A DNA stretch of 22,926 bases from Psammoneis japonica (taxonomy: Eukaryota): NCBI GenBank assembly GCA_008632985.1, contig QPGO01000007.1, positions 868,001-890,926 of the forward strand, given 5' to 3'. The notes under the pieces were generated by a model, which saw only the letters and a list, made by a program, of their open reading frames with translations, had not been told where the DNA came from and ran no database searches. This document shows, in pieces, positions 1 to 22,867 of this stretch. How positions within the stretch are numbered: the stretch's first letter is position 1; each line of letters starts with the position of its first letter. Position numbers and translations under genes: made by a program.

Positions 1-1242
1 CATGAGCTTGTACACACCTGGATCTCCGAATGCTTGCACCGGCATCTTTCCTTGCTCGGCGGCTCGTTGGCGTGCCTGTGCGTCCATGCAAGATTGATGC
101 TGCTCGGTCGTGAGTCCATCGATCGCCCTCACCACTGGTGCGATGTGATGGGGCGGAAGTGCAAGCTCGTTCCGCCCTGGCAGGTCAAGATTGACCTTCT
201 GGTCGAAGTGCCGCATGAGCACTGCATTCGGGGGCTGGGGCATGGTGAGCCACTCTCGCGCAATGGCCGACATGTGGGGGTCCGCCGCCGTGGCGGTGCA
301 TGCAACCTTGAGACAGTCCAACAAGGGACGTGTCGCGTCGACCTCATTCCTGGCCGCAGCCGCTCCAAAAATCTGTGTGAAGGCTTGCTTCGGGGACAGC
401 CCCCCTGGGAGAAGTACGTTCATGCAGGCGAACGGGACGTGCATCGCAAGTCGAGTGCGTGCTTCCACCGTGTTTGCTGCGTTCGGGTCCGCGGGGTCTG
501 CCAACCCTTCAGGGTGCGCCGTGATCTCTGTTGCCATCCCCGCATCATCTGGGACAAATGTGCCAGCGGCGGCAAGACCCATCTCCTCTGGCGGATGCGG
601 GACCACTGTGAACTGGTTGGCGACCAGGTCCCCGGCCAGGGCGCAGGCATTTCCGTCCCACGGCTGTGCAGGCCCAATGACGGCAGTCGGGCAGGTTGAA
701 ACGCGGTGGTGCACCTGAATCGACCCTTCATCGGGTGCGCCCTGCGCACAGCAGAGGCGCACTGACGCCATCGGCACGTTGTGCTCGGACGCCGCCGACA
801 CCCTCTGTGCCAGGGCCTGAGGGTTGTAACGAGAGGCCCCCTGCACACGGGCGGCAAAGTCAATCATGGGCTCCGTGTAGACTCCTTGGTGGGGGTCCTT
901 GGTGTTCGTCGCGAAGAAATCGTGGCAAGTTCGGAGGTTCCCCTGTTGGGGAACCTGAGCTGCACCGGCCTGCTGTGCCGGTTGGGCAGCTGCCTGTGGC
1001 TGCACGCCCGGCCCTCCTTGCGGCGCTTGGCCAGCAGGCACACCCGGTGGTGGCTGGGCTGGTTGCCCTGCTTGTGGCACGGGATGCACCGGCAGTGGCG
1101 GTGCGCCCGGTGGTGGTTGCGGTGGCTGCCCAGGCGGTTGCCCGTCACCGTGATTCACGGCGTTTGGCGGTTGGTCACTCACACTGCGTGCCGTGTCGAA
1201 TTCTTTCTGCGATGGAACAAAGACGGCGGAGGTGTCCTGCAT
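1..1242 (-). mobile_element. Long ORF running off the left window edge; putative ORF1/gag-like protein of a diatom retrotransposon (possibly tyrosine-recombinase DIRS/Ngaro type), TpA-eroded
   Basis: My translation of the minus frame from ATG 1242 to base 1 has no stop, so the track misses it. It reads MQDTSAVF..., a Pro/Gln/Gly-rich stretch (QPPGQPPQPPPGAPPLPVHP), then RTCHDFFATNTKDPHQGVYTEPMIDF, IQVHHRVSTCP...PWDGNACALAGDLV, RTRLAMHVPFACMNVLLPGGLSPKQAFTQI...PLLDCLKVACT and DLPG. It is GC-rich compared with the flanks. The family call rests on recalled similarity to diatom repeat-borne ORF1 proteins; no RT or recombinase domain is in the window. Confidence 0.5.
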
Positions 1243-1460
1243 CGCGGTCTTGTGGCGATTAAACCATGCTGACGACCGTGGCTTGTCTTTGTCGATCTTG
1301 AAAGAATGAGACAGACCGGTGACCGAAGAAAAACAACAACCAACCCTTGCAGCACGTTCAACGTGCGCACGTGGTTCAATGGGCAATGGGTCTTCTCCCT
1401 GATTCTGGCACTGGATGAGGACAGCAATTGACACTGACGTTGCCAGCTTCTGCCAAAGAA

Positions 1461-2406
1461 ACTGACGTTCACGATTGCAAAGTTCCACTTTCTCCTTGAC
1501 AGTGTGAAAAATGAGGTTTGGGTTGTTGCAAGCTTGCTCCAACACGAGTGCCCAAATGCCATCAGGCACCTCTTGATCGCGCACCACTCACAAAATGTTT
1601 CGGCAAAGTTTGATTTCCGCCCTCAGGTCCTCATCCATGCCTTCCCACAAAGCACAATGTTCAGCAGTCCAATTCTGCTTCATGCCTTTTACCAGCACAG
1701 CCTTGCCAACGTCACCAAAAGAGTTTTGCTCAAAATCCACCTCTTCGAGCTTGTTGCTTCGCACAAACATCTCGCCCAATGCTTTCGCACCTTCATCTCC
1801 AATGTCGTTCCCACCAAGGAAATTTTTTTTAATGGATGTGTCATTTTCAAGCTTTCGTGCCAACGATTTGGCTCCCTCATCTTCAATGGAGCAGAGCAAC
1901 AAATGTGCAGTTTTGATGGAGGAACTCTTCTGTGGAAAGTCTCCGATGCACTCTGCACCCTCGCCCCCGATTGGATTTTGGGAGAAGCCAACAGACTCCA
2001 TTCCTGTGCACTGTGCCAATGCTGAAAAGAGTGACTTTGTACCTTTGGGGCCAATGCCATTGTTCGCAAGGTTGACAGAACGCAAGAGAGGCATCAACAG
2101 CAAGACTTGCGACAAAATCTCGACACCGTTGTCCCCAATGTTGCTTTCGGTCAAATGAAGTCCATTCAGCCTTGGAAACAAAACAAGCACTTGACACAAA
2201 CGGCTGATGTCTTCGGGACCAACGTTGTTGCCATTGTGGCATCTGCCTCCCAGACTGAGGTCCCGCAAGTTGCCAAAGGATGGAAGGACGTGGCACAATT
2301 GTGCAATGCCTTCATCCCCGACATCGCCACCGGAAAGATGGATGCTGTGGATCTCTCTCGGGTTCGTTTCGGTCAAAACCTTTTGCAAGCCTGTCAAATG
2401 TGGCAT
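1461..2406 (-). pseudogene. RNI-like (NLRC3/RanGAP-type) leucine-rich-repeat gene with an in-frame TGA; hypermutated, probably pseudogenised
   Basis: Repeats of the LxLxxNxIGDEGAxxL type (GDVGDEGIAQL, SNIGDNGVEIL, NGIGPKGTKSL, NDIGDEGAKAL). First ATG is at 2406. After TGA at 1588-1590 the same frame continues VVRDQEVPDGIWALVLEQACNNPNLIFHTVKEKVEL, which resembles the usual C-terminal motif of diatom RNI-like proteins, so the TGA looks like a nonsense change (CGA->TGA). The 3' end is approximate. There are no Tyr residues. Confidence 0.75.
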
Positions 2407-2780
2407 GGTGACTACAAGAGACGCAACAACAGCAACAGAAGCAGGCACATGTGCCGGGCAACAACCTCATCATTGTGGTTTTGAATGAAAGCGTGATGCC
2501 GAATTTTGAACTGGATACAACGGCTTTCTACTAGAGACTGCTCTTGTGTAGAGTAGGAGGCCGACAAACTGACGCCATACAGACAACTGCAGTAGACCGC
2601 GAAATAAATTTTGGCGCGCTAATAGCTGGCGAGCATTGGGGGCGCGACCAGAAAATAGAAAATACGTTTACGTACTGTAGCAGGGCCCTCTTATCTACTC
2701 TATGATAGAGAGAGAAATGAAAAGACGCATGATACCTGTTCTCTACGTTTAACTAGTTTCCTTTTGTAGCACAGCGCACT

Positions 2781-4696
2781 CTAGTGGTCAATGTATGGCA
2801 CAATACCCATCTTCAAATGACCATGTGCAGCCTCCCTCCCGACATGATGAGCAGAAACGTCGCTCTCTTCGCCGGCTTTCGCTTCGTCCCAATATCCAGA
2901 GAAAACGGACCGAACCTGAACCTGGTTGTTGGCACCCTGACCGTAGGTCTTACCGCAAACCAGAACGATGGGATCGCCCTCCTGTGCCATTTTGGATTTG
3001 CACACTTCGTTGCAGACTTCTGTAATGAGCTCATCGGAATCTTCGAGAGAATCCACAACAAAGCCGTAGACACCCTTGAGGTATCCCGTGCACTGACGAG
3101 CCACGGACGCAGACGGTGTGAGACACAACACGATACAACCAGGTCGGTACTTGGCAATGTTGCGCGCCGTGTTGCCGGTTTCACTCAATACCACAATGAA
3201 CTTGGCCCCAATATCAATGGCAGTCTTGGCGGCCGAAGAGCAAAGAGACTCGGAGGCATTGAGAGCGTGACGACGGACGACAGTGTTACGAACCGACTGA
3301 AAAAGCTCATTGAAGTTCTGAGACGACTCTGCCTCACAACAGGTCCTGGCCATAACCTTCACTGCCTGCTCAAAGTACGGTCCGTTGGCAGTTTCACCAG
3401 ACAACATGACCGCGTCAGTTCCGTCAAAGCATGCGTTGGCTACATCGGAGCACTCGGCGCGTGTAGGACGTGGATTGGAGATCATTGATTCCAACATTTG
3501 CGTCGCGGTAATGACGGGCTTGCCAGCGATGTTGGCTTCTCGGATCATGTACTTTTGAGCCAGGAACACTTTGCTGGGAGGAATCTCCATACCTAAACGA
3601 GAAGCAGAACACACAATACAAGATCAGTTGAAAGGTAATTATGACTTGGTAGATGCTCTTGTGCACTCGTTGAATCACCTACCCAAATCCCCACGAGCGA
3701 CCATGATGGAATCCGTAGCGTTCAAGATATCCACGTAGTTTTCCAAGCCCTGTATTGAGTATCAACAAAGTAAGAAAAGTAGTCGTAGAACTGGTGACGG
3801 TAAAAGAGTCTCAGTACTCACCTCAAGGTTCTCGATTTTCGATATGATTTTGATATCTTGCCCGCCATTGTCGGCCAAGATCTTGCGGATCGTGAGAACA
3901 TCCGACTTCTTACGAACAAAACTCGCCGCAATATAGTCCACTCCATTTTTGATACCAAAGTTGACAATATCATCGATATCCTTCTCTGTCACGGTGGGTA
4001 GATCGACAACAACTCCTGGAAGATTCATGTTTTTGCGTTCGCCAATTGCAACGTCGTTCTCGATCCGGCATCCAACCTCACCTGCCGCTTCGTCAACCTC
4101 AAGGACAGTAAGAACCAGAGAACCATCTGCCACGAGGATTTGTTGACCCGGGCTGACCGACTTGGCAAGGGAAGGATATGAGCAAGCGAGTTTCTTGTTG
4201 TTTCCTTTAAAAGCATAGTCGGCCGTCAAGACCAGGGTTTCCCCCTTTTTCAAATAAATCTTGTCGGCACCATCTGCGAAAAAGCCAGAGCGAATCTCTG
4301 GACCCTTGGTATCCAACAAGACGGCTACAGTATTAATATTACAGAAGATCGACAAGAGGATTGAGCATGATGTGAGAGAAGGGGTGAATGAAAACAAAAC
4401 TGGTAGCGAATCATTGTTTCCTACTTACCGATGTTTGAGTTTTTGTTCTTTGCCGCCTGCCTCAAACGATCCAAGCAGGCCTTGTGCCCAGCGTGGTCAC
4501 CATGAGAAAAGTTGAATCGAGCAACATTCATTCCGGCATCGATGAGAGTTTCCAATTGCTCAACTTCCCAACAAGCCGGTCCCAATGTGCAGATAATCTT
4601 GGTACGGCGAGAACCAACAATGGTGGGACGCTTGATCATATTGAGGTCCACAAAACCACCGGCAAGCATGGGGATATCAGACGTGTTGGAAATCAT
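2781..4696 (-). CDS. PK: Pyruvate kinase, 4 exons: complement(join(2781..3592,3683..3749,3822..4324,4429..4696)), about 549 aa
   Basis: Motifs RRTKIICTLGP, ARFNFSHG, LLDTKGPEIR, ISKIEN, IMVARGDLGMEIP, ATQMLESM, PTRAE and DAVMLSGETA. Three GT-AG introns (4325-4428, 3750-3821, 3593-3682) join in frame to 1650 nt. No obvious targeting presequence. Confidence 0.97.
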
Positions 4697-6884
4697 GGTA
4701 GATACTTTCTTCTTTTGCTTCCTGCTAATCAAACAGGAAATCTCTTTTTTTCTTCTTTTTTCAAATCGTTTGATACCGTCTATTGTGTGTCCACGTTGCT
4801 TTTGTCGCCCTTAGAATGATGGGCTGTCAATGTCGAACGTGCTGTCATGCTTTCATGTGGCGTGTCAACGACGTCGGAGGGAAAAAACGAACCACGTCGA
4901 CCTTTACGTGGGTTTGTAGGGCAGAAAGTACGTCATCGGGCTATGTGTACAAAATTTTGAAAATTCAATATGATCTTCCAGTCTGAAGCTATCTAAATGA
5001 TCCTCATCTGAGCGAAGAGCGAGAACACGCACCATGTACCATGACGGTACCATGCACCATGCTCGATGGAAAAAAAAAACATGAAATTGATCGAGGGTGC
5101 TGTACAACACGTTTGTTGCTTTGAATGACAACCACTGGCTCGATTTTACAAACAGACTCGCTTGAGTTACCGGTATGCTGTCGCAAGACCCTGTTGCAAG
5201 GCCAAGTTGAGGGCTTCGGTTGCTCAGATCGTCTTCACCTTTTTTCTGCGGCAGGCCAGCGAGCTCAGTGTGAAAGTGCGTTCGACACTGCTTTGCATGT
5301 GGAAATTGTCGAAAATCGAGAGCGGAGATTTGTTGCTAAGACGGGTTCTTTCTCGGTTACAGCCAGCAACAGAAGAATCATGGTGCTCAAACACTTTGCG
5401 ACGCGCTGAACGACCGTCAAACACGCCTCTCCCTCCGAATAGAGACGCAGTTGCATTTCAAATCCGCACTCTGTTCCAGTACACCACACATCATAAGACT
5501 CGACTTTTCTATGCATTGACTCCAAAATAGAGATCCGTTGCAGAAGTGAATGACCAAGGACGACGGACGAGACGACTTGATGTACATTTCAACCACATGG
5601 CCTCTGGAGACATTGCAAAAGGCAGAGACAAGCCTCCAAAAGACACATGGTCAATGCGCAGTCGACTACTGATTAATCGGTGGTCCTCGGAACGGAATAA
5701 GGACTGGCTCATCTCGCATGGGAACGTCCAAGTGGCCGCAACTGTCCCGCCTCAACCCATTGATTGAAGGAACAACACTTTCCGTAGTAGAGCGTTGTTC
5801 CGTGCGACTGTGAGTTCCATAGCAGAAAAAATCCTTCCGAGTGAGATTCAATGCTGCAAGTGCCTTTCCACAGTGTTGCGCCCAGCTAACGTTCAACGAG
5901 TGACCCAGCTACTCGTGCCGGCTATCCTCGTCCCACTGGAATCGTCACTTGAAGGCGTTCGGTAGTGCATGGCGATGAAACTTGGGTAAAGATGAGTCCC
6001 GAGATGACAGCTGTTAGTAAAGAGCAAAAACGAATGGACTTAGTACCTACAAATTCATAAGGAGAAGACATGAGGCAAGCATGAGAAACCTGAAACCTGT
6101 CATGGGGCACGGCGCAGCTCATTACCCTGATACGAGGAAGAGTTTGCCGGTGAGTATAAGCGCACAGTCTTCCGTACCGGTACGGATCTCATGCACGTCA
6201 TGTCTCACCACTCTTTCCTTTTTTTCTTCTTATTCAGGCAATCTCTAGTATGCTCTGACGCATTCTCCTGAACCACTCACGGAGGAATACATCCACACAT
6301 TGTCTTGTAATGCCGCTACTGAACGTCTGGAGGCTGCTGGGTGCATTACGTTGGAAGAAGCAGAAGTAAAAGACTCGCTCTCCGCCGAAACTGGTGTGGA
6401 GGTAATCTTTTGCTCTAACCTTCTAACATATGATTGTTTCTCTATCGTTGGTCTATGCTCACCGACATTTGTTGTGTACAACACAATGAAGATTACGTTG
6501 CCATCATTGATTGAAGACGAAGATGAACGAAATGCAGTGAAGAAAACTCTTCTCCGGTCTAGAGACCGGTACCTGGAAGAAAAGCGTGCGAACACTGGAT
6601 TCATATCCGGGTGCACATTTGTGGCACTTGCAATGAGTTTTTCGAAATTCGTACTGTTTATGAAGCCGGTCGAGAAGCTTGGTATTAAGGTGCGACTTGG
6701 CGATGTGTCATTTCGAGAGGCGGGTGATAATGGGCCAGCGCGATGCTGGATTTAGGTTCGAGGCAATGTTGGCTGAGACATGTTTGGAGGAGTAATTGAG
6801 TCGATATTCTCGTCTCATCACGAGACGTTGTCTCATTCGTTCAAATAAGGCTTGGCTGCTCCATACACAACTTGGAAACTCGTA

Positions 6885-7144
6885 ATCATGAAAGCTGCTA
6901 ACTGTTCACAACAAATGCTAACTCAAAAGACACGATGTGCGCTTACTAAGCATCCTCTTAGCTTTCTTGGCGAGCATTACAAATGGAGCCATTCGACCGT
7001 AGCTTCTTCTTTGTATCATAAAAGCTACTAATTGTTATCAACGAATACTAACTCAAACGACGCAATACACGCTTAGTAAGCATCCTTCCAGCTTTCTTTG
7101 CGAGCATTCCAGACAAAGCCAATCGACCGTAACTTCTTCTTTTG
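6885..7144. repeat. Diverged 130-bp tandem duplication (6885-7014 and 7015-7144) of the 3' end and downstream flank of the HA-repeat gene
   Basis: Ungapped alignment at offset 130, e.g. ctaactcaaaaga..gcttactaagcatcc..cgagcatt..tcgaccgtagcttcttct vs ctaactcaaacga..gcttagtaagcatcc..cgagcatt..tcgaccgtaacttcttct. 18 mismatches in the 95 nt counted (6918-7012 vs 7048-7142). Confidence 0.9.
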
Positions 7145-7783
7145 TTCGGCCGTCCGGGTGCTTTTGCGAACTCTTTGAAGCCGAACCCAATTGCCGAGAC
7201 GAGGTGTACTCTGAGGAACCAGAACATGACCATGGGCTTTCTTATATTCCACCAAGCGCTGGAACATTTCGTCCCAGGTTTCAACAACCTTCCAGCTAAA
7301 GCCAATCGCATCGAGCCATTCCTTTCGTTCCTCAGACAGGTGACCCGTCTTGAAGAAAGTCCTTTGATTGTCAACCCATTTCCCGAGCTTTTTATCAAGC
7401 TTGTACTTTTGTGGTACGAGACAATTTCCATGCGCTTGGCGATAGGACTCGAGCTTGGCGTACATTGTATCCCACTCTTCGTGTTTCTGAACGCTCCATG
7501 CAAAATTAATAGAATCAAGTTTGTCCCTACGTTTAGCCGGCATGCTCATCTTCTGACTCCGTTGTTTGTTGATCCATCTTCCTAACTTCGGGTTATCTTT
7601 GAAGTTACGCGGAACACAGCAATCGCCATATTCATCCTTGTACTTCAAAAGCTGATCGTACATGGCTTCCCATGCCTGATCAGCGGCGGCGGCGGCTCCT
7701 TTGCTTGTACCTTCCACCACCTGCTCTGCTTTTCCACGAAGCTCGTCTCTTCCATAGTAGATTCGGGAATTGATACAAGGCAT
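7073..7783 (-). CDS. Helicase-associated (HA, PF03457) repeat protein with three HA domains; may be truncated at either end
   Basis: Three units of W..MY..L..YK..HG.C.VP......LG.WV..QR.........R...L..IGF.W. The ORF ends at WKDAY*, which looks like the start of a fourth unit. Confidence 0.85.
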   Translation of the reverse strand: MPCINSRIYYGRDELRGKAEQVVEGTSKGAAAAADQAWEAMYDQLLKYKDEYGDCCVPRNFKDNPKLGRWINKQRSQKMSMPAKRRDKLDSINFAWSVQKHEEWDTMYAKLESYRQAHGNCLVPQKYKLDKKLGKWVDNQRTFFKTGHLSEERKEWLDAIGFSWKVVETWDEMFQRLVEYKKAHGHVLVPQSTPRLGNWVRLQRVRKSTRTAEQKKKLRSIGFVWNARKESWKDAY

Positions 7784-8671
7784 GATTGCTCCTCGAGTTG
7801 CTCTTGTGAAATGGCATCACTTTTCTCTGCTTTCTTCCTTTGCTGGCGAGTTTACCATTAAAATCCGACTTTGTGAGGAGGCGTTGAGTTGAGATCGCTG
7901 TTCGCTGTAACATGTGCTTCGCACCAATTCCAGCCACATGCATTTCTTATGTCGAAGAAGCCAGTCATAAGACTTCTTTGAACATATCGACCTGAGGAAA
8001 TTTTAACTTGTCGTCAAGAGAGATCATAGGTCTTGGTCCTCCTTCACTGCGTTGGACAACTACCGACTACTCATGCCAACGTCAAACGTCATACTTTCGA
8101 TGCTCACCAAAACAAAACCAGAAACAACCTTATATACAACAAACACGAATCTCGACAGCTGAATAGCGTCTCTTGCCACGAGGCCGTCGTTTGTGGAATA
8201 AGCGCATATCTGTTGCCATCATGGTTTGTACGGTATGTGGTGTGGACGACGGTGCGGGAAAAGAAAGATGCTGCGAGCGACTTGGGTGGTTGAAATGCTT
8301 TCTTCCACTATGAATACTTTCAATTGAACAATAAGTCATTACAAGACATAAAATTTAACGTATCATTATTCAAACAGGTATAAAGATTTTTGTTTTTATA
8401 CCGACACGTCACTATAAATAATATATACTTATAATAATACTCAACAATCATTTCTTGACATATGCCCTGAAATAGACATTAGATCGGTCATTTTGCGACG
8501 CCCACTTTTTGCATTGAAACCGAAAGCACCAAGAGGAACTTGGCCAAAACAACCGCATTGACGTTGCCACTTCGCCGTCGCCTTCGATACGACACAATAG
8601 AGGCAGTTCAGCTGACACTCCTTCGGGATACATGGGACACCTTACGAACTGTGAAGAAAATAACGAAAAAT

Positions 8672-10822
8672 ATGCATTTGGTGTCAGAAGATGATGAGGT
8701 GGACACCTTTAACGACGAGCCGGAAATGCCGGAAGACGCCTTGCAACCCTTTTCCCAGCTTCCAGATCAGGAAGAAATCTCGAACGATTTTATTTCACCT
8801 TTTCAGAGAGCTGCTCAATCAACGAGGGAAATGAGAGACATGTTTCAGTGGTGGACGCAGAAGTCAACTCCAATATCAGACGATGAGTCCTCCGTTGACG
8901 AAGAAGAATTCGACAACGAGAACGAACGAGAAGCATTCAGTCAATGTACGTCACACGCACCACGACGAGGAATATTTCGAGACGACAACATGGTGAAGAG
9001 ATGGAGGCAAAAACGTGTGGTGCCGGGTTTGTATGGACTTGTGATGTATGACAACGAAATCAAGGAAGAGGGATTGGCTAAGAGTGTTGAACCACCGCCG
9101 ACATCTTCATCATCACCAGAAACCGAACAAGATACCTTTTTAGAACGCGTCATTTCAACCAAAGGGGGAGGTGGCTTCTATGAGAAACGAAGCGTTGGGA
9201 CATGTGCGACCGAAGCAATGACTGAAGCTTCGGGGAATTCAAACGACTTGTCGGAGGTCGAAGTCGGCGCTGCTTGCTTAGCAGTGTCGCCGCCGTCTCC
9301 GACTTATCACTCTGTCGAGCAATCTCAAAGTTTTTCGTTGACACCGGAGAGCCAACTGTCAAGCGATGTCGAGCAGTGCACGACAACAACATCTCGGGTA
9401 GGGGCGCAAAACAATAGACAACTTTTGTCCACAAGAAGTTCGAGTTTTCGTCCCATCGACGAGGAATTGGACGAGATAGCAATGCAAGACATGGGATCAT
9501 TTCGAAACAAAGCAGAGAGAGAACCAACAAAACGTCGGAAAGCATGGACAATAAAAGAGAAACTATTTGCTTTTGGGTTACTTTGTACAATTGCCGGGTT
9601 TGTAACAGTGCTGATATTGTTGCTTCAACCTTCTGACCAAGACGACGACGGTGCAAACCAGAATACTGTAAGCAATGAAAATGTGGACATTGACGGACTG
9701 AGTGATTTTGAGAAGTTGAAAGCACTCCTGTCTGAGGTTGCCTTGGACGGTGGAGTAGAATTCAATGATCCGACAAGCTATCAGTCCAAGGCCCTATCAT
9801 GGCTCTCGTCTGACTCTCAGATCGAAGAGTACTCCAAACATCAAATGATTCAACGATGGGTGTTGGCATGTATATACGTTAGTACCAACAATATGAATGA
9901 TTCGTCCTTGGAATGGTTTTCGTCCGACAACTGGCTCGACACCCAGGTTGACGAATGCAAGTGGATGGGGATTGTTTGTAACGACCAAGGCGAGAGGTCG
10001 GTGGTGAGCATTCACTTGCGAAACAACCGCCTGATTGGAACATTTCCCGCAGAAGTATCTCTTTTGGCCGAGAGCCTAGAGGTTCTTGATCTCAGCCGAA
10101 ACTTTCTCGTGAACGAAGGCGTCGAGGGACACATGTTTCTCGAGAAACTCACGAACCTTCGCAAGCTGGATTTCGGGTCAAACTACTTTGCTTTTACTGA
10201 GGGGATTCCACCTCAAATGAAAGAACTGACAAACTTGGTAGGGCTTGACGTCTCGAATACTCGGTACACTGGCAAGCTACCTGGAAACGTTTTTGCTGGT
10301 TTGCAGAGTTTGCAAGATTTGCGACTAGGGAGAAATGTTTTCAACAGCTCCATTCCAGTCGAAATAGGCAACCTGCCTAGCTTGAAGTACTTACACATCG
10401 AGAACGCGGGTATAACGGGTGACCTAGGCTTCATGAAACCAATGGAAACTATTTTTGAAGTATGGCTAGATCAGAACCCCAACCTAAGTGCTACACTTCC
10501 GACTTTTTTGGGTGAGCTGACTTCCTTGGTAAGTTTATCCATCTCTGAGTGCAGTCTCCGTGGCTCCATTCCAACAGAGCTGGGTCAATTGGAGAATCTT
10601 CATCTATTGTGGCTTAACAATAACAAGCTCTCGGGCGACGTTCCCTCCGAGTTGGGAATGTTGGAAGAGCTGAGACGGATGGATATCAAGGGAAACGATC
10701 TCATAGGACAAATGCCTCCGGAGATTTGTGCTAACACCCGACTGCCGAATGGCTTCCTTGCGGTGCTGGAGGCTGACTGTCGTGATCAACTTGAGTGCTC
10801 GTGTTGCTCAGAATGTTTCTAG
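8672..10822 (+). CDS. Type II membrane LRR protein (kinase-less, receptor-like), 716 aa from the first ATG
   Basis: Acidic disordered N-terminus, then a basic patch (KRRK) and one hydrophobic helix (LFAFGLLCTIAGFVTVLILLL). Cap motif PTSYQSKALSWL..QRWVLACIYVST..NWL..ECKWMGIVC, plant-type LRRs (LRGSIPTELGQLENL) and a C-terminal ADC...CSCCSEC. The track start at 8540 is a TTG. Confidence 0.9.
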   Translation: MHLVSEDDEVDTFNDEPEMPEDALQPFSQLPDQEEISNDFISPFQRAAQSTREMRDMFQWWTQKSTPISDDESSVDEEEFDNENEREAFSQCTSHAPRRGIFRDDNMVKRWRQKRVVPGLYGLVMYDNEIKEEGLAKSVEPPPTSSSSPETEQDTFLERVISTKGGGGFYEKRSVGTCATEAMTEASGNSNDLSEVEVGAACLAVSPPSPTYHSVEQSQSFSLTPESQLSSDVEQCTTTTSRVGAQNNRQLLSTRSSSFRPIDEELDEIAMQDMGSFRNKAEREPTKRRKAWTIKEKLFAFGLLCTIAGFVTVLILLLQPSDQDDDGANQNTVSNENVDIDGLSDFEKLKALLSEVALDGGVEFNDPTSYQSKALSWLSSDSQIEEYSKHQMIQRWVLACIYVSTNNMNDSSLEWFSSDNWLDTQVDECKWMGIVCNDQGERSVVSIHLRNNRLIGTFPAEVSLLAESLEVLDLSRNFLVNEGVEGHMFLEKLTNLRKLDFGSNYFAFTEGIPPQMKELTNLVGLDVSNTRYTGKLPGNVFAGLQSLQDLRLGRNVFNSSIPVEIGNLPSLKYLHIENAGITGDLGFMKPMETIFEVWLDQNPNLSATLPTFLGELTSLVSLSISECSLRGSIPTELGQLENLHLLWLNNNKLSGDVPSELGMLEELRRMDIKGNDLIGQMPPEICANTRLPNGFLAVLEADCRDQLECSCCSECF

Positions 10823-11841
10823 CAGTAGCTACTACACAGTTAGAAATGGATACCTGTAGGGGGGAAATGATAGAAACAGAAAAAAACTAGAAACTAGATT
10901 GTTATAACGAGGCGAGTCTTTCACTTATCATCCAACTCATTTTAATCCTAGCTAAATCCAGGCCTTCCGCGACAGTTTTTTTATTTTCAAATCTCGGAAG
11001 AGTTCCAGTTGAGTACTATCCGTAATACTGAAGTACGACTACTTTAGGGCTAGGTTTGGTCCTTACTGACGGTAATAGCCTTCGGGTCCCCAGCATCTCT
11101 ATCCGCGAATGCCTCTTGTGGCCGGAAAAGAAAGGCGTTAAACTGTACGTAGATCCCCATACGAATTGTACGCAATAAATGTTTGCTATGAGAAAATTCA
11201 CGTCAAGTCTTCGTTGTCTGGACAATAATCAACCATCGTGCTTTCTTTTCTGGGCAATAGACATCCTAAATAATTTGATTACGATTCTGTAAGATACTTA
11301 AGGGGTAAAATATTTAGGACGACGGATATAATGACTGTGTATTGTCCTGGGTACACAACCCTCGTATCTAACTTCCGTTGAACGAGGCTTATATGATTAT
11401 TCATAGCATTTGATTGGTTCAGAGATATGTCTAGTCAAATCGTAACCTTTCTGTCGAATGCTTATTCCATCTCGTTTGTGTGCAATTCTACGCACCAGTC
11501 CGGTATATTAATCAATACCGTATTTGGTCAGACATCTCTTGGATGACCTTCCCTATGTACTTTTTGGAGAAAGACACATTCGAAAAATTAGCAGGCTCGA
11601 TATTCGCGAAGGCATGGGTCACACCGCAAATAAGAAGTGAAGTGGTTCTATTCAACACCTTACCCATCGTTTACTTGCAACCCCAAGGGCGTTTCTCATC
11701 GCCTAAAGAGCAAAAAGACTCAACAACAACTCTCTTGAAGACTCCTTTAGTGATCGAAACTAAGGGAAATAACGCGCTGTCTCCCTTACGAGGAGCCGAT
11801 TTAATGAACAAAACAAGAACCCTGAAATTTACAGATTGAAA

Positions 11842-14800
11842 ATGAGCAATAGCGTAACTACGATTGACACTTCCACGTCTGCCGGAGAAGCAACAGCGGA
11901 AAGTGACAATGCAAGTGAGACTAGAATACCGATCGGAACGTCGCAATCCAGTGCCAGCATGCTGCGACATCTCGTGACAAAGATGCAGGCTAACGAGAAT
12001 ATCAACAACAAAAACAGCAGAAACGGGATCGACTCTAGTAGCCTTGAAGAGTCACTGAGTAAGCTGGACAAAATGTCCGAAGAAATCAATATGATCTTTG
12101 AGGATACTGACTATAGCGAGAGTCAGTCCAGGTCGAGTGCTGGCAACTCTTCTGGAGACGGCTTGAAGCCATCGTCTCTGAATAACTGGATCGAGCAGAC
12201 TTACAAGAGCACGAGCCCTTCAGAAGCGACTCGTACCAAACTCAACGAGCACAGCAAAAGTAGAAGGGCCCGGTCCATTTCAACTACACATACTGTTACT
12301 CCTCCCAGCAGCGACAGCTCATCACCAAGCCCTGCTTCTGGTCACAGCAGAGCGAACCACCAACACCACCATGCGGAGCTCGCGTCTGAGCGAGATTCAT
12401 GCAAAGACTCAACACACAACACGGACGATGAAAGCATCACGCTAAGTTCTTCGGGACGTGTTATACGACATAGTATGGATGCAGAAAACATGAAACGCAA
12501 TGCTGAACGGACGGAACGGTTAGAGAAAAAGATAAGACAAGTTCACGAAGAAGAGGAGTCATCATCATCTTCGATACGCTTCGAGCTGGAGAAGACAAAA
12601 TCGGATGAGTCGATGGCAGAATTGGCGGTGGCGGGTGCTCTCAGAAAAATCATGGCAACATCGTCCGAGGAAGAAAGCTCAGAGAGTGGCAGTGACGATT
12701 CCTCCTCCTCTGGATCGTCTCACGAAGAAGTCACACGCGGGGCTACTGGCGGTCATTCACCGAGGCATAAGGCGGTCAGAGCAACACCGCATTCATACGA
12801 CAGTAGTCCCACGGTCTCATCACCACCGCCGAGACAGCATGAGCCAGACGAGGAGGAATGCCAACCGTATCACCCACAACCACGATCGCCACCGCGACAC
12901 GAAATCCGGCGATATCCGCTCCATCAAATACCAGAAGACAGCTCAGGCTCCGGTCCGGTTCAGACAGATCAAGAAGGTATGGAGCATTCGTTCAGTGAAA
13001 TGGACGAGATGATGGCATGGTACAGGGAAAAGGAAGAAAATATCGACACGATGGACGCATTCCTCCCAGGCATCAGAACAAGTAGCAGTTCAACGTCTTC
13101 TACCTGCTCCCACAATCCTGGAAGCCGGGTCAACAGCAACTCATCCTCGGTTAGCCACGGGAGATCCGTCGGAAGCGATCTTTCTTCTGTCAGTCCAGGC
13201 AGCCGAGTCAACAGTGATGCCTCGGCGTCTTCAAACTTTTCCATGTCCCCTTATTACCTTGTTGTTGAAGGTGACAGCGCGCCTTTGTCGTCACAATATA
13301 CAGTACCCCCGCCCCAACAACCTCCAGGGGACTCCCATCCAGGAGAGCCCGGAGGTCAAGCACCAAGTGCCATTCAACCGGAAGAAAATACCGAGTCTTC
13401 GCTTGCAGTTGCGTCAGCAGGGAGCTCCAGAGCTTCTTCGCCGAGTCCTGATTCAGTGGGTTGGGAGGAGCTGGGCCTTTCTGAAGGTGAACGAGAGGCA
13501 CTGCATCGCTACGAGCAGTCTGCCGGAGGGAACAATAGAAGGGCGTCGTTGGACTCCACTGATGTGGAATTGCTTCTCTTGGAACAAGAAATGCTCGCAA
13601 TGCAAGACAAGCAGTCGTCGAAGCGAAGTATAGGCTCTTCTGATAATGGATCGGTAGATTGGGCCGAAGTTGGCTTGTCCAAAGAAGAACGGCAACAGAT
13701 GCATAGTTTGGGCGGTGAGTTCCTTCGCCAGCAGGTCGCAGAGTTGGCAAGGTATGAATTGCAACGTGACAGCCGGCAAGCGTCTTCTTCGGTACAAAGC
13801 ACACAAGGATCGGGATCTCTGAGCGACTCGATTGCGCTTGAGCTGTCCCGTTACGAAACCAAGGAGCTCGAGAAGCTATCACGTGAGCGGGCAGGAAGAC
13901 GCGACCCGCCGAGCTCATCCGATGAGTCGTCACAGGATTCAAGTTCAACGAGTTCGGGATCCTCAAGTGATTCGACCAACTCAGCTATCGCGGCCGATCC
14001 AGAGCTCGTCGACGCTTTAATGGTTGGGATGAAGGCACCTTCGTCAGACGAAATGCTCAAGAAGAAGAAGAAGTCTCGTTCCAGCAAGCGCTGGGACTCC
14101 AGCCTCCCTGGCGCTTACCCTAGCAACAAGGATCCCGATGAAACGTATTGTTCTTTGAAGGGTGCTAGTAAAAAGAGTCACAAGCACAAGGCTGGAAAGG
14201 CAGCCTATCACAGTGCGGGCGACGAAGAAGCGTCCAGCAAGATTCTTATATCGACCGGAGCTCATTCCATGTCGAACACGAGTTCGCTGTTGTCGAAAGA
14301 GAAAAGTAAATTGGCACCTATTGGAAACGAAGAAGTTTATGTCGATCTGTTGCATGAAGAGTCCTTTGTCGACGAACCTGCTTCTGGCGAGCTACTTCCT
14401 CTCCACAGAGGCAACAAAATGTGTGATCGTCGCAAACTGGTGATTTGCTGCATCAGCGGCTGGGTCTTGGCTCTGATTGTCGTGGCGTTTATGATGGGTG
14501 TGCTGGTCACATCTTCCCTGCAGGACGACTCGAGCAACGAGAGTGGATCAACCGGTACGCTGTCTCTGTCGGAAACGTTGTCCAAGGTTGCCCTCCAAGG
14601 TGGGACAGAGTTCAACAACCCCGAAAGCTATCAATCGCGAGCTCTGGCGTGGCTTCAAGACAATGCGAATCTAACTCGCTACTCTGAAGCGCAGAAAATC
14701 CAGCGCTGGGTTTTGGGTTGTTTCTACTTCAGCACAACAGACGTGGAAAATGCTCATACTTGGATTTCAGCGGACAAGTGGTTGTCGAACGCGGAAGAAT

Positions 14801-15657
14801 GTACTTGGAAAGGCGTTGTCTGTGATGGGATCGGCAGATCTGTCGTTGCACTGGAGCTCCCAAACAATCGTCTCAGGGGGGTAGTACCCCCAGAGATATC
14901 GCTGCTATCCTCTACGCTGGTGACGTTGAATCTGCACAATAACTTACTCACAAATAGCGGAGACGATGGGCATAGCTTCTTCCAAGAGTTGACGAAGCTG
15001 CGTCGCCTGAACATTGGCTCGAACGACTTCATCTACGAAGGCATCCCTCTCCAGTTTGCCAAGCTAACGGATTTGCTTGTCCTGGATATTTCGAACTTGG
15101 GCTACTCGGGAGAGCTGAAAGGCAAGGTATTTCAGAGGTTGCACCTTCTAAAAGACCTGAGAATGGGCGGGAACTACTTCAACAGTTCCATTCCGATGGA
15201 GATTGGCAAGATCAAGTCTCTCGAGTACCTACACGTTGAGAATTCAGGCATTACTGGTGACTTGAGTTTCACTAAGCCAATGAACAATGTCATTGAGCTG
15301 TGGCTTGACCGCAATCCAGACATGGAAGGGACGATTCCAACTAACTTAGGCAACACATCGACCCTGGGCAGTCTTTCCCTCTCCGAATGCGGCTTGACGG
15401 GCCAGATACCGACTGAGCTCGGTTGGTTGACAAAGTTGGAGTCGTTGTGGCTTGCGGATAATGAGCTGACTGGGACAGTGCCAAAGGAGTTGGGAAGTAT
15501 GGTGCAACTGCGAAGGCTGGAAATCACAGGTAACGATTTGTCTGGAACAATGCCTGCGGAGGTATGTGTCATGACGCGCCCTCCGGGTATTCTTGCATTG
15601 CTCGAAGCGGATTGCGTGGATGAGGTCATTTGTGACTGCTGCACTCGGTGCTATTAG
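11842..15657 (+). CDS. Type II membrane LRR protein, paralog of 8672-10822, with a very long Ser-rich N-terminal tail (1271 aa)
   Basis: About 870 aa low-complexity N-terminus, RRK plus a TM helix (LVICCISGWVLALIVVAFMMGVLV), cap PESYQSRALAWL..QRWVLGCFYFST..ECTWKGVVC, LRRs (LTGQIPTELGWLTKL) and a C-terminal ADC...CDCCTRC. Confidence 0.92.
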   Translation: MSNSVTTIDTSTSAGEATAESDNASETRIPIGTSQSSASMLRHLVTKMQANENINNKNSRNGIDSSSLEESLSKLDKMSEEINMIFEDTDYSESQSRSSAGNSSGDGLKPSSLNNWIEQTYKSTSPSEATRTKLNEHSKSRRARSISTTHTVTPPSSDSSSPSPASGHSRANHQHHHAELASERDSCKDSTHNTDDESITLSSSGRVIRHSMDAENMKRNAERTERLEKKIRQVHEEEESSSSSIRFELEKTKSDESMAELAVAGALRKIMATSSEEESSESGSDDSSSSGSSHEEVTRGATGGHSPRHKAVRATPHSYDSSPTVSSPPPRQHEPDEEECQPYHPQPRSPPRHEIRRYPLHQIPEDSSGSGPVQTDQEGMEHSFSEMDEMMAWYREKEENIDTMDAFLPGIRTSSSSTSSTCSHNPGSRVNSNSSSVSHGRSVGSDLSSVSPGSRVNSDASASSNFSMSPYYLVVEGDSAPLSSQYTVPPPQQPPGDSHPGEPGGQAPSAIQPEENTESSLAVASAGSSRASSPSPDSVGWEELGLSEGEREALHRYEQSAGGNNRRASLDSTDVELLLLEQEMLAMQDKQSSKRSIGSSDNGSVDWAEVGLSKEERQQMHSLGGEFLRQQVAELARYELQRDSRQASSSVQSTQGSGSLSDSIALELSRYETKELEKLSRERAGRRDPPSSSDESSQDSSSTSSGSSSDSTNSAIAADPELVDALMVGMKAPSSDEMLKKKKKSRSSKRWDSSLPGAYPSNKDPDETYCSLKGASKKSHKHKAGKAAYHSAGDEEASSKILISTGAHSMSNTSSLLSKEKSKLAPIGNEEVYVDLLHEESFVDEPASGELLPLHRGNKMCDRRKLVICCISGWVLALIVVAFMMGVLVTSSLQDDSSNESGSTGTLSLSETLSKVALQGGTEFNNPESYQSRALAWLQDNANLTRYSEAQKIQRWVLGCFYFSTTDVENAHTWISADKWLSNAEECTWKGVVCDGIGRSVVALELPNNRLRGVVPPEISLLSSTLVTLNLHNNLLTNSGDDGHSFFQELTKLRRLNIGSNDFIYEGIPLQFAKLTDLLVLDISNLGYSGELKGKVFQRLHLLKDLRMGGNYFNSSIPMEIGKIKSLEYLHVENSGITGDLSFTKPMNNVIELWLDRNPDMEGTIPTNLGNTSTLGSLSLSECGLTGQIPTELGWLTKLESLWLADNELTGTVPKELGSMVQLRRLEITGNDLSGTMPAEVCVMTRPPGILALLEADCVDEVICDCCTRCY

Positions 15658-21714: not shown

Positions 21715-22703
21715 TTAACCCATCCATTCCGTGGAGCGGAATCCCATGCCGGGGTACTTGGCAGAGGAACCAAGCTCTTCTTCAATACGCAAGAGCTGGT
21801 TGTACTTGGCAAGACGCTCACCACGGCAAGGAGCACCCGTCTTGATCTGTCCGGTACAGAGACCAACGGCAAGGTCGGCAATGTAAGAGTCCTCGGTTTC
21901 TCCACTGCGGTGGGAAGTCATGACACCCCATCCGTTCTGCTTGGAAAGCTTGACGGCATCGATACTCTCGGAGATGCTTCCAATCTGGTTCACCTTGAGA
22001 AGGAGGCAGTTGGCAGACTTCTTCTCGACGGCTTCCTGAATCTTGATGGGGTTCGTGACGGTGAGATCGTCTCCAACAATCTGAACCTTCTCTCCAACTT
22101 CAGCGCAGATCTTGGTCCAGTTGTCCCAATCATCCTGGTCAAAGGGATCCTCAATCGTGACAATGGGGTACTTGCCAATCATATCCTTGTAGAATTGAAT
22201 AAGCTCGTCTCCCGTCAAGAGAAGCGACGAGTCCTTGTCGGCTCCCGATGTCTTGAAATCCAAATCATACTCGTTCTTACCCTCCACCTTGAACTCGGAC
22301 GATGCCACATCAAGACCAATCGATACCTTGTCGAGGTATCCTGCCTTTTCGGTGGCTTCCATAATCATTTGAATACCCGACTCCACGTCACAGGGAGGAG
22401 CGAATCCACCCTCGTCTCCGATAAGAGTAGCATCACCACCAAACTTGCCCTTGATGACCGACTTGAGGTTGTGAAAGACCTCGCAACCGATTTCCATCGA
22501 CTCGGTAAACGTCTCGGCACCCGTGGGAATGACAAAGAATTCCTGAAAGGCAAGCTTGTTACCCGCGTGCTCTCCTCCGTTAATCACGTTAAAGCAGGGA
22601 ACGGGAAGAGTTTCAGGAACCGGGTTGCCGGCAATGTCGGCGTAGTGCTTCCAGAGTGGAACACCCTTGGATGCGGCACCGGCCTTACTGGCAGCAAGAG
22701 ACA
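21715..22703 (-). CDS. ENO: Enolase, last exon (5' part lies beyond the window)
   Basis: [102 protein letters not shown]. Acceptor ...CATACAG at 22704-22705. The 5' extension of the track ORF is intronic. Confidence 0.97.
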
Positions 22704-22867
22704 CTGTATGGAAGAAACGTGTGAAAAGACGAGAACATATGGTGAGAAACAAATCCGAAACAAACACATACGTCTCACTATAAGTCAACAAGAACTCAGC
22801 CAACAACCATACTAACAGCTTTGTGCTGCTGTGTACACATCAAACTCCCACTCAAGCACACATCAAC

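Follow-up and report, generated by a model that had tools for sequence, protein, structure and literature searches.

Near-complete loss of TpA from a multi-copy unit of Psammoneis japonica: a candidate case of two-strand A:T-to-G:C hypermutation

To our knowledge, all described cases of context-specific hypermutation of repeats are either conversions of cytosine to thymine (RIP, APOBEC) or editing of RNA (ADAR). RIP in Neurospora and other fungi, which depends on RID/DIM-2, replaces C:G by T:A pairs, mainly by conversion of CpA to TpA, and hence creates TpA. APOBEC3 causes G-to-A changes on one strand in a GG or GA context and creates stop codons. A-to-I editing of the ADAR type or the fungal ADAT2/3 type takes place on RNA, concerns one strand per molecule, and becomes heritable only via reverse transcription; the fungal mRNA editing prefers a 5′ U, and ADAR also tolerates a 5′ A. 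In Escherichia coli, the depletion of CTAG was reportedly ascribed by Bhagwat and McClelland in 1992 to very-short-patch repair. Full-text searches of the literature yielded neither an account of hypermutation directed at TpA nor any report of diatom elements that lack TpA.

The stretch of DNA analyzed here (22,926 nt, in the following called the window) starts with a domain, positions 1 to 2515, that contains nine TpA dinucleotides (positions 11, 415, 827, 878, 1260, 1690, 1830, 2040, and 2413), corresponding to an observed/expected ratio (o/e) of 0.08 and z = −13. After shuffling of the domain (2000 mononucleotide shuffles), a mean of 118.8 TpA was obtained (standard deviation 8.4, minimum 90), and all other 2515-nt stretches of the window contain between 60 and 144 TpA (median 99.5). 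The o/e of TpA is 0.59 in the window outside the domain and 0.45 to 0.54 in five coding stretches located elsewhere in it. Runs of 373 to 430 nt without TpA, the five longest in the window, are all located inside the domain, whereas the longest run elsewhere has 206 nt. The domain has a GC content of 56.5% and contains 247 TpG (o/e 1.52), 213 CpA (o/e 1.46), and 158 CpG (o/e 0.79); ApA (o/e 1.49), TpT (1.20), and ApT (0.91) are not depleted. The 245 nt immediately following the domain (2516 to 2760) contain 23 TpA (o/e 1.27). As the last TpA of the domain is at 2413 and the next one at 2516, the right edge of the purge lies between 2414 and 2516. These numbers agree with the 9 and 23 TpA given in a preliminary description of this DNA; for the pyruvate kinase exon at 2781 to 3614, the reported value of about 20 TpA in 812 nt had to be adjusted to 22 in 834 nt.

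The depletion extends over parts of different base composition. Positions 1 to 1400 have a GC content of about 62 to 66% and a TpA o/e of 0.10, and positions 1401 to 2515 have a GC content of about 48 to 50%, which equals that of the host, and a TpA o/e of 0.05. The non-coding end of the domain upstream of the LRR frame on the minus strand (2449 to 2515, 67 nt) contains no TpA at all. The earlier statement that coding and spacer DNA are affected alike and that GC content offers no explanation is thus borne out. Since the purge is independent of the reading frame and spans both GC halves as well as non-coding DNA, it points to a process that acted on the joined unit rather than to an inherited composition. 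More than 90% of the TpA steps of the domain have been lost by T-to-C and A-to-G changes, affecting both strands. The CpG o/e varies between 0.61 and 0.86 across the domain; the view that CpG remains common is correct only in part, as the value in the LRR-encoding half is 0.61 and the copies of the domain show CpG decay.

The junction at 2515, which had been marked for confirmation, is not an assembly join, as a 4043-nt Logan contig (depth 59.7) covers positions 2297 to 5000 with one difference; the read run behind this contig may be the source sample of the window assembly. An artefact caused by the miscalling of modified bases was likewise considered and rejected: it would spare about a quarter of the TpA steps and create CpG, neither of which was observed, and the signature was also found in proteins from other sources.

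The genes recognized in this part of the window are all encoded on the minus strand. A 529-codon open frame (1 to 1587), whose C-terminal side is cut by the window edge, represents a degenerate copy. It comprises a region with homology to a family of ~700-aa proteins (about nt 1 to 936) and encodes a Pro/Gln/Gly-rich stretch (about nt 940 to 1140). Six homologues with 41 to 51% identity were found with query residues 225 to 529; a query with the entire 529-aa frame gave no homologue, probably owing to words from the Pro-rich part. The family includes 174 cluster representatives at E ≤ 0.001. A TGA stop codon (1588 to 1590) separates the 529-codon frame from a 286-codon frame of the LRR_6 type (1588 to 2448; PF13516, E 2.4e-17; RNI/NLRC3-like), which is in the same reading frame, has 4 TpA in 861 nt (o/e 0.07), and encodes no tyrosine. 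Its closest relatives are generic NLRC3-like LRR proteins with 25 to 36% identity, and among the LRR relatives of 448 to 1428 aa none was fused to the ~700-aa family. Outside the purged domain, which like the adjacent TpA-rich spacer (2516 to 2780) is not assigned to a strand, follow the exons of a pyruvate kinase (2781 to 4732; PF00224 and PF02887), a flanking single-copy host gene with a depth of about 60 and a normal TpA o/e of 0.47 to 0.54.

The domain, which is cut by the left edge of the window, has a summed contig depth of 180 to 900, compared to about 60 in the flank, and 225 matching pieces with 80 to 100% likeness were found; it is thus multi-copy. Within the window it is not repeated elsewhere, apart from a 39-nt internal repeat, and no reverse transcriptase, LTR, terminal repeat, or target-site feature is present in the window, by whose edge the element is cut. 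None of the RNA runs listed contained the stretch. The domain is the end, truncated by the window, of a multi-copy and probably mobile unit, in which an LRR frame is followed by a gene of the ~700-aa family.

Comparison with the other copies in the same genome revealed two kinds of differences. Of 34 differences listed for the domain, 12 consist of CpA or TpG in the window and CpG in other copies. The stop codon between the two frames is CGA in most other copies: at position 1590, A is replaced by G in four contigs of X1 (depth 240.9/306.3) and in two contigs of X2 (TCA to TCG on the plus strand). TpA-type differences were found at 1655 and 1665 (CA in the window, TA in two contigs), at 1830 (TA in the window, CA in four contigs), and at 1842 to 1843 (CA in the window, TG in six contigs). 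One diverged copy still matches up to position 2601, about 86 nt beyond the edge, and there TpA is retained in both copies. The copy-by-copy comparison of substitutions proposed in the preliminary description was carried out in part on DNA and for the most part at the protein level. In the DNA comparison, the other copies in this genome seem to share the TpA-poor state and to differ from the window mainly at CpG sites, and the purge may be older than their divergence. The decay of CpG to TpG or CpA is, by the same comparison, a second signature superimposed on the TpA loss that makes the window copy degenerate.

Conversion of the tyrosine codons TAY to TGY or CAY yields cysteine or histidine. 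The tyrosine content of the listed relatives with at least 250 aa is 0.4 to 4.1%, mostly 2 to 4%, and that of the window copy is 0.6%; the lowest values among the listed relatives are those of P0005 (0.4%) and of P0020 and P0064 (both 0.7%). At alignment columns where relatives have tyrosine, the window copy has cysteine in three of five, P0005 has cysteine or histidine in three of five, and P0020 in two of six, whereas in all other members pooled 8 cysteines and 20 histidines were counted at 850 such positions. Compared to its 16 nearest relatives, the window copy shows four Y-to-C exchanges (residues 221, 299, 315, and 388), three F-to-H, one F-to-C, and three Y-to-F exchanges; the corresponding numbers for the 16 relatives pooled are 1 for Y to C, 6 for Y to H, 3 for F to H, 3 for F to C, and 31 for Y to F. 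Aromatic residues were replaced by histidine at positions 293, 331, 383, and 460. The codons of these replacements are TGC or TGT (cysteine) and CAC or CAT (histidine), with TGC or CAY at tyrosines conserved in relatives; V-to-A exchanges are encoded by GCA, L-to-P exchanges by CCA, and T-to-A exchanges follow a codon ending in T. All of these fit a change of TA to TG or CA, so that both directions of conversion have occurred, in line with the o/e values of TpG and CpA. CpG-type exchanges were found at conserved residues as well: R to C at 280 and 500, R to H at 497, R to Q at 405 and 463, T to M at 382 and 515, V to M at 389, and A to V at 456. According to the protein alignments, the TpA loss of the window copy is derived and not inherited. 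This polarity is taken from alignments of proteins, and the counts behind it are small. The objection that intact homologs might be equally TpA-poor does not apply at the level of the family, most members of which have a normal tyrosine content. A 4-mer comparison of lost xTAy with gained xTGy/xCAy, with host DNA and not the ancestor of the element as background, showed no clear relation (r = 0.19).

The signature of TpA loss was also found, at the protein level, in two other lineages of the family and in records from other sources (JGI). Tyrosine-poor members occupy three places on a quick maximum-likelihood tree, and its well-supported branches force at least three changes. P0005 and P0161 belong to one 90% cluster, are both tyrosine-poor, and are identical at 546 of 561 positions. 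The 15 differences are C/H (three times), Y/H, V/A (three times), I/T, L/P, K/E, T/A, M/V, D/N (twice), and R/Q, and all seven that can be polarized by the family consensus are T-to-C or A-to-G changes, i.e., AT to GC. A C/H difference, which requires an exchange between TG and CA, occurred in none of the 168 differences of control within-cluster pairs. At the three C/H columns, the near relatives are variable, with tyrosine in 1 of 11, 1 of 12, and 4 of 12 sequences, and these differences could also have arisen from an arginine ancestor (CGY) by CpG decay. At the eight columns with at least 40% tyrosine in near relatives, P0005 and P0161 have the same cysteine or histidine at five and differ at one, suggesting that much of the conversion may be older than the split of the two sequences.

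Like RIP, the process recorded here involves dinucleotide-specific transitions on both strands over repeats, has sharp bounds, can reach saturation, affects copies separately, and is presumably followed by methylation. The duplication typical of RIP targets is present (depth 180 to 900 versus about 60; 225 pieces), but instead of an excess of TpA and a deficit of CpA and TpG the opposite is found, with changes from AT to GC, and the host looks like a diatom and not a fungus. This reversed direction excludes an enzyme directed at cytosine as the agent. The context specificity and the burst-like occurrence, with single copies heavily mutated and relatives normal, are reminiscent of APOBEC3, but in the purge both strands are affected, A/T being replaced by G/C at TpA, and stop codons can never result; a strand-specific G-to-A or C-to-T pattern in GG/GA or TC context was not seen, A-to-G and T-to-C changes at TpA being about equally frequent. 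A-to-G change with a preference for a preceding U or T is shared with ADAR and ADAT2/3, but ApA is not depleted in the domain and the outcomes are symmetric: instead of clusters of A-to-G changes on one strand, 247 TpG and 213 CpA, four Y-to-C and four aromatic-to-histidine exchanges were found. The WA motif of Pol eta, with A-to-G changes at both TA and AA, does not agree with the ApA o/e of 1.49 either. Decay of 5-methylcytosine is present as the second signature and has the same product dinucleotides, as evident from the CpG differences between copies and the CpG deficit; it explains part of the TpG and CpA excess, but it cannot remove TpA, and CpG is only mildly low (o/e 0.79) compared to TpA (0.08). 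The depletion of CTAG also represents a bias of repair or modification from T:A to C:G that depletes a short word, but it concerns a 4- to 5-base context and is genome-wide, mild, and bacterial, whereas the purge concerns a bare dinucleotide, is confined to a repeat, and is nearly complete.

We consider it probable, although well short of certain, that copies of the element underwent a TpA-targeted AT-to-GC hypermutation on both strands by a putative enzyme. Such a process would have turned nearly all TpA into TpG or CpA by A:T-to-G:C transitions on either strand, and since TpA is its own complement, a single enzyme reading it on duplex DNA would act equally on both. Conversion would have been fast relative to ordinary divergence, as expected for hypermutation, would have proceeded copy by copy, and would have reached three or more separate lineages within the element family. 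By a base-modifying activity directed against the DNA of the element, the A in TpA might be deaminated to hypoxanthine, or the T oxidized to a derivative pairing with G; in-place action on DNA that is repeated or silenced, as in RIP, appears somewhat likelier than action on replication intermediates. Ordinary decay of CpG to TpG or CpA would have followed on the same, presumably methylated copies.

An unlikely alternative to mutation bias is selection, by which an active lineage would have purged TpA/UpA to evade a UpA-cutting RNase or a TA-targeting integration or nuclease, at the expense of most of its tyrosines. It would agree with the absence of in-frame TGA from the 529-codon frame, compared to 45 TGA in all frames of the domain, with the occurrence of the TpA-poor state in three lineages, and with the match of P0005 to the family consensus, which is as good as that of normal members (228 of 293 columns versus 283 of 360 for P0001); the untranslated parts of a transcript would also lose TpA. 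Moreover, of the five TpA left in the 529-codon frame, three belong to tyrosine codons, one of them at a nearly invariant column with tyrosine in 13 of 14 relatives, which may indicate that the purge took place under purifying selection. However, open frames are expected regardless of selection, as the conversion of TA to TG or CA creates no stop codons and removes TAA and TAG, and the replacements are the radical ones of tyrosine by cysteine or histidine and not the conservative one by phenylalanine that prevails in normal members (31 Y to F versus 7 Y to C/H). P0005 and P0161 differ almost exclusively by TA-type changes (14 of 15), including discordant cysteines and histidines, so that a raised mutation rate at TpA is needed in any case. 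The window copy itself is not under selection now, as indicated by the CpG-decay replacements at invariant residues and the CGA-to-TGA stop.

We also regard it as rather improbable that a retroelement was edited in transit, its RNA and/or cDNA being deaminated at UpA/TpA in each round of retrotransposition while a normal master persists. This would account for the sharp edge of the purge, for the coexistence of TpA-normal and TpA-poor family members, and for discordant outcomes in near-identical copies, and would suit the finding that up to 28 contigs encode identical proteins, the contigs being 2 to 7 kb long, and that a source gives the name RNA-directed DNA polymerase to a 42-aa member of the P0011 cluster. 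On the other hand, the window contains neither a reverse transcriptase nor an LTR or target-site feature, one diverged copy shares the unpurged flank, a saturation of 92% in a single passage would be extreme, and two substrates would have to be edited equally, as the strands are affected to about the same extent (4 to 5 Y-to-C exchanges versus 4 to histidine). An inherited foreign composition, from a TpA-poor virus or another donor, or an artefact of assembly or sequencing would fit the sharp compositional edge and the GC-rich part, and the only DNA run in which this stretch was found is perhaps that of the source sample itself; both are very unlikely, as two halves of unlike GC content were purged alike, the protein relatives are tyrosine-normal with cysteine or histidine at the conserved sites in the window, a contig bridges 2297 to 5000, the protein-level signature recurs in the JGI records, and no relative was found among viral contigs. 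GC-biased gene conversion, or a general AT-to-GC drift of repeats combined with CpG decay and no TpA-specific agent, is suggested by the multi-copy state, the GC-rich first 1400 nt, and the polarized AT-to-GC changes, but has very little to recommend it, because a general bias would not single out one dinucleotide: ApA, TpT, and ApT are undepleted, and the LRR half has a host-like GC content and yet a TpA o/e of 0.05.

TpA-targeted hypermutation had been put forward in the preliminary description as a candidate "reverse RIP" system of genome defense, with TadA-type adenine deaminases among the activities mentioned. A derived, two-strand conversion of TpA to TpG or CpA over a repeated unit is retained from this proposal, but the defense role and the deamination chemistry found no support; because the conversion never creates a stop codon, it would be a weak means of killing an element. 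In a more specific and tentative form, for which we see less than even chances, diatoms or a resident mobile-element family might possess an enzyme that recognizes bare TpA in duplex repeat DNA and converts it to TpG or CpA, hypermutating copies to saturation before CpG methylation decay sets in; candidates would include a naturally occurring deaminase of adenine in double-stranded DNA and a thymine-oxidizing enzyme of the TET/JBP type. Within the window, no candidate enzyme was seen. If true, a heritable two-strand A:T-to-G:C change restricted to TpA would add a novel mutational signature, and one of the major groups of marine algae would by implication possess a novel DNA-modifying activity. 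The consequences would concern the control of mobile elements by diatoms, the search for natural A-to-G DNA editors, and repeat annotation, as purged DNA is open in six frames, lacks tyrosine, and misleads gene callers. TpA-free tracts together with cysteine or histidine at former tyrosine sites would provide a simple genome-wide marker.

Neither the 529-codon frame nor its six relatives had a Pfam match. No family relatives were confirmed in metagenomes in scans with a reduced alignment and with P0005 alone, and none were found in viral contigs or in contigs of prokaryote genomes. Matches in the Atlas were hypothetical clusters only, one of which is labeled Bacillariophyta. AlphaFold predicts the structure of P0001 with confidence (mean pLDDT 84.3); Foldseek searches of PDB and BFVD with the complete model gave nothing at E ≤ 0.001, and VIA gave nothing at Z ≥ 5. 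At their C-terminus, the relatives carry a Cys/His-rich motif.

In the stretch at positions 1-2515, which runs off the left edge of the window, only nine TpA steps were found (positions 11, 415, 827, 878, 1260, 1690, 1830, 2040, and 2413; observed/expected ratio [o/e] 0.08). Mononucleotide shuffles of this domain contained 118.8 ± 8.4 TpA (z = −13 for the real sequence), and elsewhere in the window every stretch of 2515 nt holds 60 to 144. The first TpA past the edge lies at 2516, and 23 occur within the next 245 nt; in five coding stretches elsewhere in the window, the TpA o/e is 0.45 to 0.54. The expected products of TpA conversion were in near-equal excess (TpG o/e 1.52, CpA o/e 1.46), with a CpG o/e of 0.79 and a GC content of 56.5%. 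The depletion noted in the preliminary description was thus confirmed, as was its statement that base composition and codon bias are insufficient to explain it: the GC-rich half (1-1400; TpA o/e 0.10), the half with 48 to 50% GC (1401-2515; o/e 0.05), and 67 nt of non-coding DNA at 2449-2515 (zero TpA) are all purged, and ApA (o/e 1.49), TpT (1.20), and ApT (0.91) are not depleted. The surviving TpA steps lie in GTAC (three), TTAA (two), GTAA, GTAG, TTAC, and CTAC (one each), and none of the nine in an ATA or TAT context, which hints at a neighbor preference of the process or, alternatively, at small-number chance.

Logan contigs from one DNA run were aligned to window positions 1-5000. The summed contig depth was 180 to 900 over 1-2505 but only ~60 beyond, and 225 contig pieces matched at 80 to 100% likeness, showing that the unit in the domain is multi-copy. 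A single 4043-nt contig (depth 59.7) extends across 2297-5000 with one difference and spans the junction at ~2515, which rules out an assembly join there; this run may have been made from the source sample. Forty of 559 variant places were listed, 34 of them inside the domain. At 12 of these 34 the window has CpA or TpG where other copies have CpG, and at two the reverse holds, a pattern of 5mC-type decay. The listed differences also include places 1655 and 1665 (CA in the window, TA in two contigs), 1830 (TA in the window, CA in four contigs), and 1842-1843 (CA in the window, TG in six contigs). One diverged copy (2496-2601), seen in a contig with roughly half the single-copy depth, could be aligned as far as 2601, ~86 nt past the edge, and TpA is kept there in both copies. 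The duplicated unit may therefore extend beyond the purged tract, which could end, e.g., at a transcription start.

The minus strand of the domain contains an LRR_6 frame at 2448-1588 (286 codons, no Tyr), whose relatives are generic NLRC3-like proteins only. Beyond a TGA stop at 1588-1590, the same frame continues for another 529 codons (1-1587), which run off the window. Since this triplet is CGA in most of the genome's other copies, a single long protein joining the LRR part to an unknown domain may have been encoded by the ancestral unit; in other organisms, proteins related to the unknown domain begin without an LRR part. Three of the five residual TpA in the 529-codon frame belong to Tyr codons, a hint at some selection during the purge. 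Its Pro/Gln-rich coding stretch contains a direct repeat of 39 nt at 1043-1144 (74% identity, spacing 63).

The last ~310 codons of this frame (1-936) show homology to an unnamed family of ~700-amino-acid proteins, with six matches at 41 to 51% identity and at least 174 cluster representatives (E ≤ 0.001); the nearest eukaryote-labeled Atlas cluster is Bacillariophyta. The proteins have a Pro/Gly/Ala-rich N terminus and a Cys/His-rich C-terminal motif, and no Pfam domain was found in them. The AlphaFold model of the member P0001 was confident (pLDDT 84.3) and matched no fold in PDB or BFVD. Family proteins recur in identical form on as many as 28 contigs, the contigs carrying family proteins are 2 to 7 kb long, and one small member of a family cluster is labeled RNA-directed DNA polymerase. 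These features are compatible with a mobile element without proving it, and the family is multi-copy and probably encoded by a diatom mobile element.

As Tyr is encoded only by TAY, the Tyr content of these proteins reports on TpA. It was 0.6% in the window frame and 0.4 to 4.1%, mostly 2 to 4%, in the listed relatives of at least 250 amino acids, the lowest among the listed relatives being P0005 (0.4%) and P0020 (0.7%, tied by P0064). In columns of a 126-row alignment with frequent Tyr, Cys stands at three of five in the window, and Cys or His at three of five in P0005 and at two of six in P0020; the remaining rows together give 8 Cys and 20 His in 850 cells. Measured against a consensus of the 16 nearest relatives, the window copy shows four Y→C, no Y→H, three F→H, one F→C, and three Y→F replacements, and these relatives pooled show 1, 6, 3, 3, and 31, respectively. 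The Cys codons of the window copy are TGC (221, 299, 315, and 388) and TGT (425), the His codons CAC (293, 383, and 460) and CAT (331), in agreement with the predicted change of TAY to TGY or CAY. The V→A replacement at 376 has GCA in place of GTA, the L→P replacement at 346 has CCA in place of CTA, and at T→A 302 the preceding codon ends in T. TG and CA products thus both occur on the coding strand, in keeping with the similar excess of TpG and CpA. Judged from these comparisons of sequence, the TpA loss in the window copy is derived. Conserved residues of this copy also bear replacements of the CpG type (R→C at 280 and 500, R→H at 497, R→Q at 405 and 463, T→M at 382 and 515, V→M at 389, and A→V at 456), which mark it as a decaying one.

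The relatives P0005 and P0161, which form one 90% cluster and are both Tyr-poor (0.4% and 0.2%), are identical at 546 of 561 positions. Their 15 differences are C↔H (three), Y/H, V/A (three), I/T, L/P, K/E, T/A, M/V, D/N (two), and R/Q, and all seven that the family consensus polarizes (V→A three times, I/V→T, K→E, Y→H, and L→P) go from T to C or from A to G. A C↔H replacement needs two nucleotide differences (TG↔CA), as would be expected if one ancestral TA had been resolved differently in two copies, but it could also come from an Arg (CGY) ancestor; control pairs from seven other clusters showed no C↔H among 168 differences. TA-type changes thus account for nearly all of the divergence of the pair, at a TpA rate far above background, and the process continued after their separation. 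At the eight columns with at least 40% Tyr in near relatives, the two proteins have the same Cys or His at five and different ones at one, so that much of the conversion may be shared by both copies. In a quick maximum likelihood tree, Tyr-poor rows fall in three separate positions, and at least three changes are required by well-supported branches.

A change of TA to TG or CA is an A:T→G:C change at a self-complementary step, and an agent that recognizes TpA in duplex DNA should act on both strands alike, as observed. Adenine might be deaminated to hypoxanthine, read as G, or thymine oxidized to a derivative pairing with G; the sequence is compatible with both and does not discriminate between them. 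RIP and APOBEC act in the wrong direction, ADAR and Pol eta do not fit the untouched ApA and the symmetric outcome, and CpG decay, though present in the domain, is incapable of removing TpA. The signature is that of a context-specific repeat hypermutation distinct in chemistry and direction from RIP, APOBEC, and ADAR, and no description of such a TpA→TpG/CpA signature appeared in the portions of text returned by a full-text literature search. Given the strand symmetry and the saturation, in situ action on repeated DNA is slightly preferred to editing in the course of retrotransposition. The preliminary description had proposed a "reverse-RIP" genome-defense hypermutation over a mobile element; a directed conversion across a repeated element has support within the reach of the protein-level and partial copy comparisons, and the defense role and the enzyme are conjecture. 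TA→TG/CA conversions never create a stop codon and remove TAA and TAG, which accounts for the presence of long open reading frames in all six frames of the domain; frame openness is therefore no evidence of function, and the process would be a poor killer of elements, which counts against a pure defense role.

The gene content of the window is eukaryotic. A gene with three helicase-associated (HA) domains (7073-7783, minus) and two large LRR genes of the LRR_1/LRR_8 type (8540-10822 and 11836-15657, plus; 760 and 1273 codons) have a normal TpA content; HA-domain expansions are typical of diatoms, which, with the Bacillariophyta cluster named above, suggests a diatom host. ORMDL and Tub genes lie elsewhere in the window. 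Two enzymes of lower glycolysis, pyruvate kinase (several exons, 2781-4732, minus) and enolase (21715-22806, minus), are encoded less than 20 kb apart.
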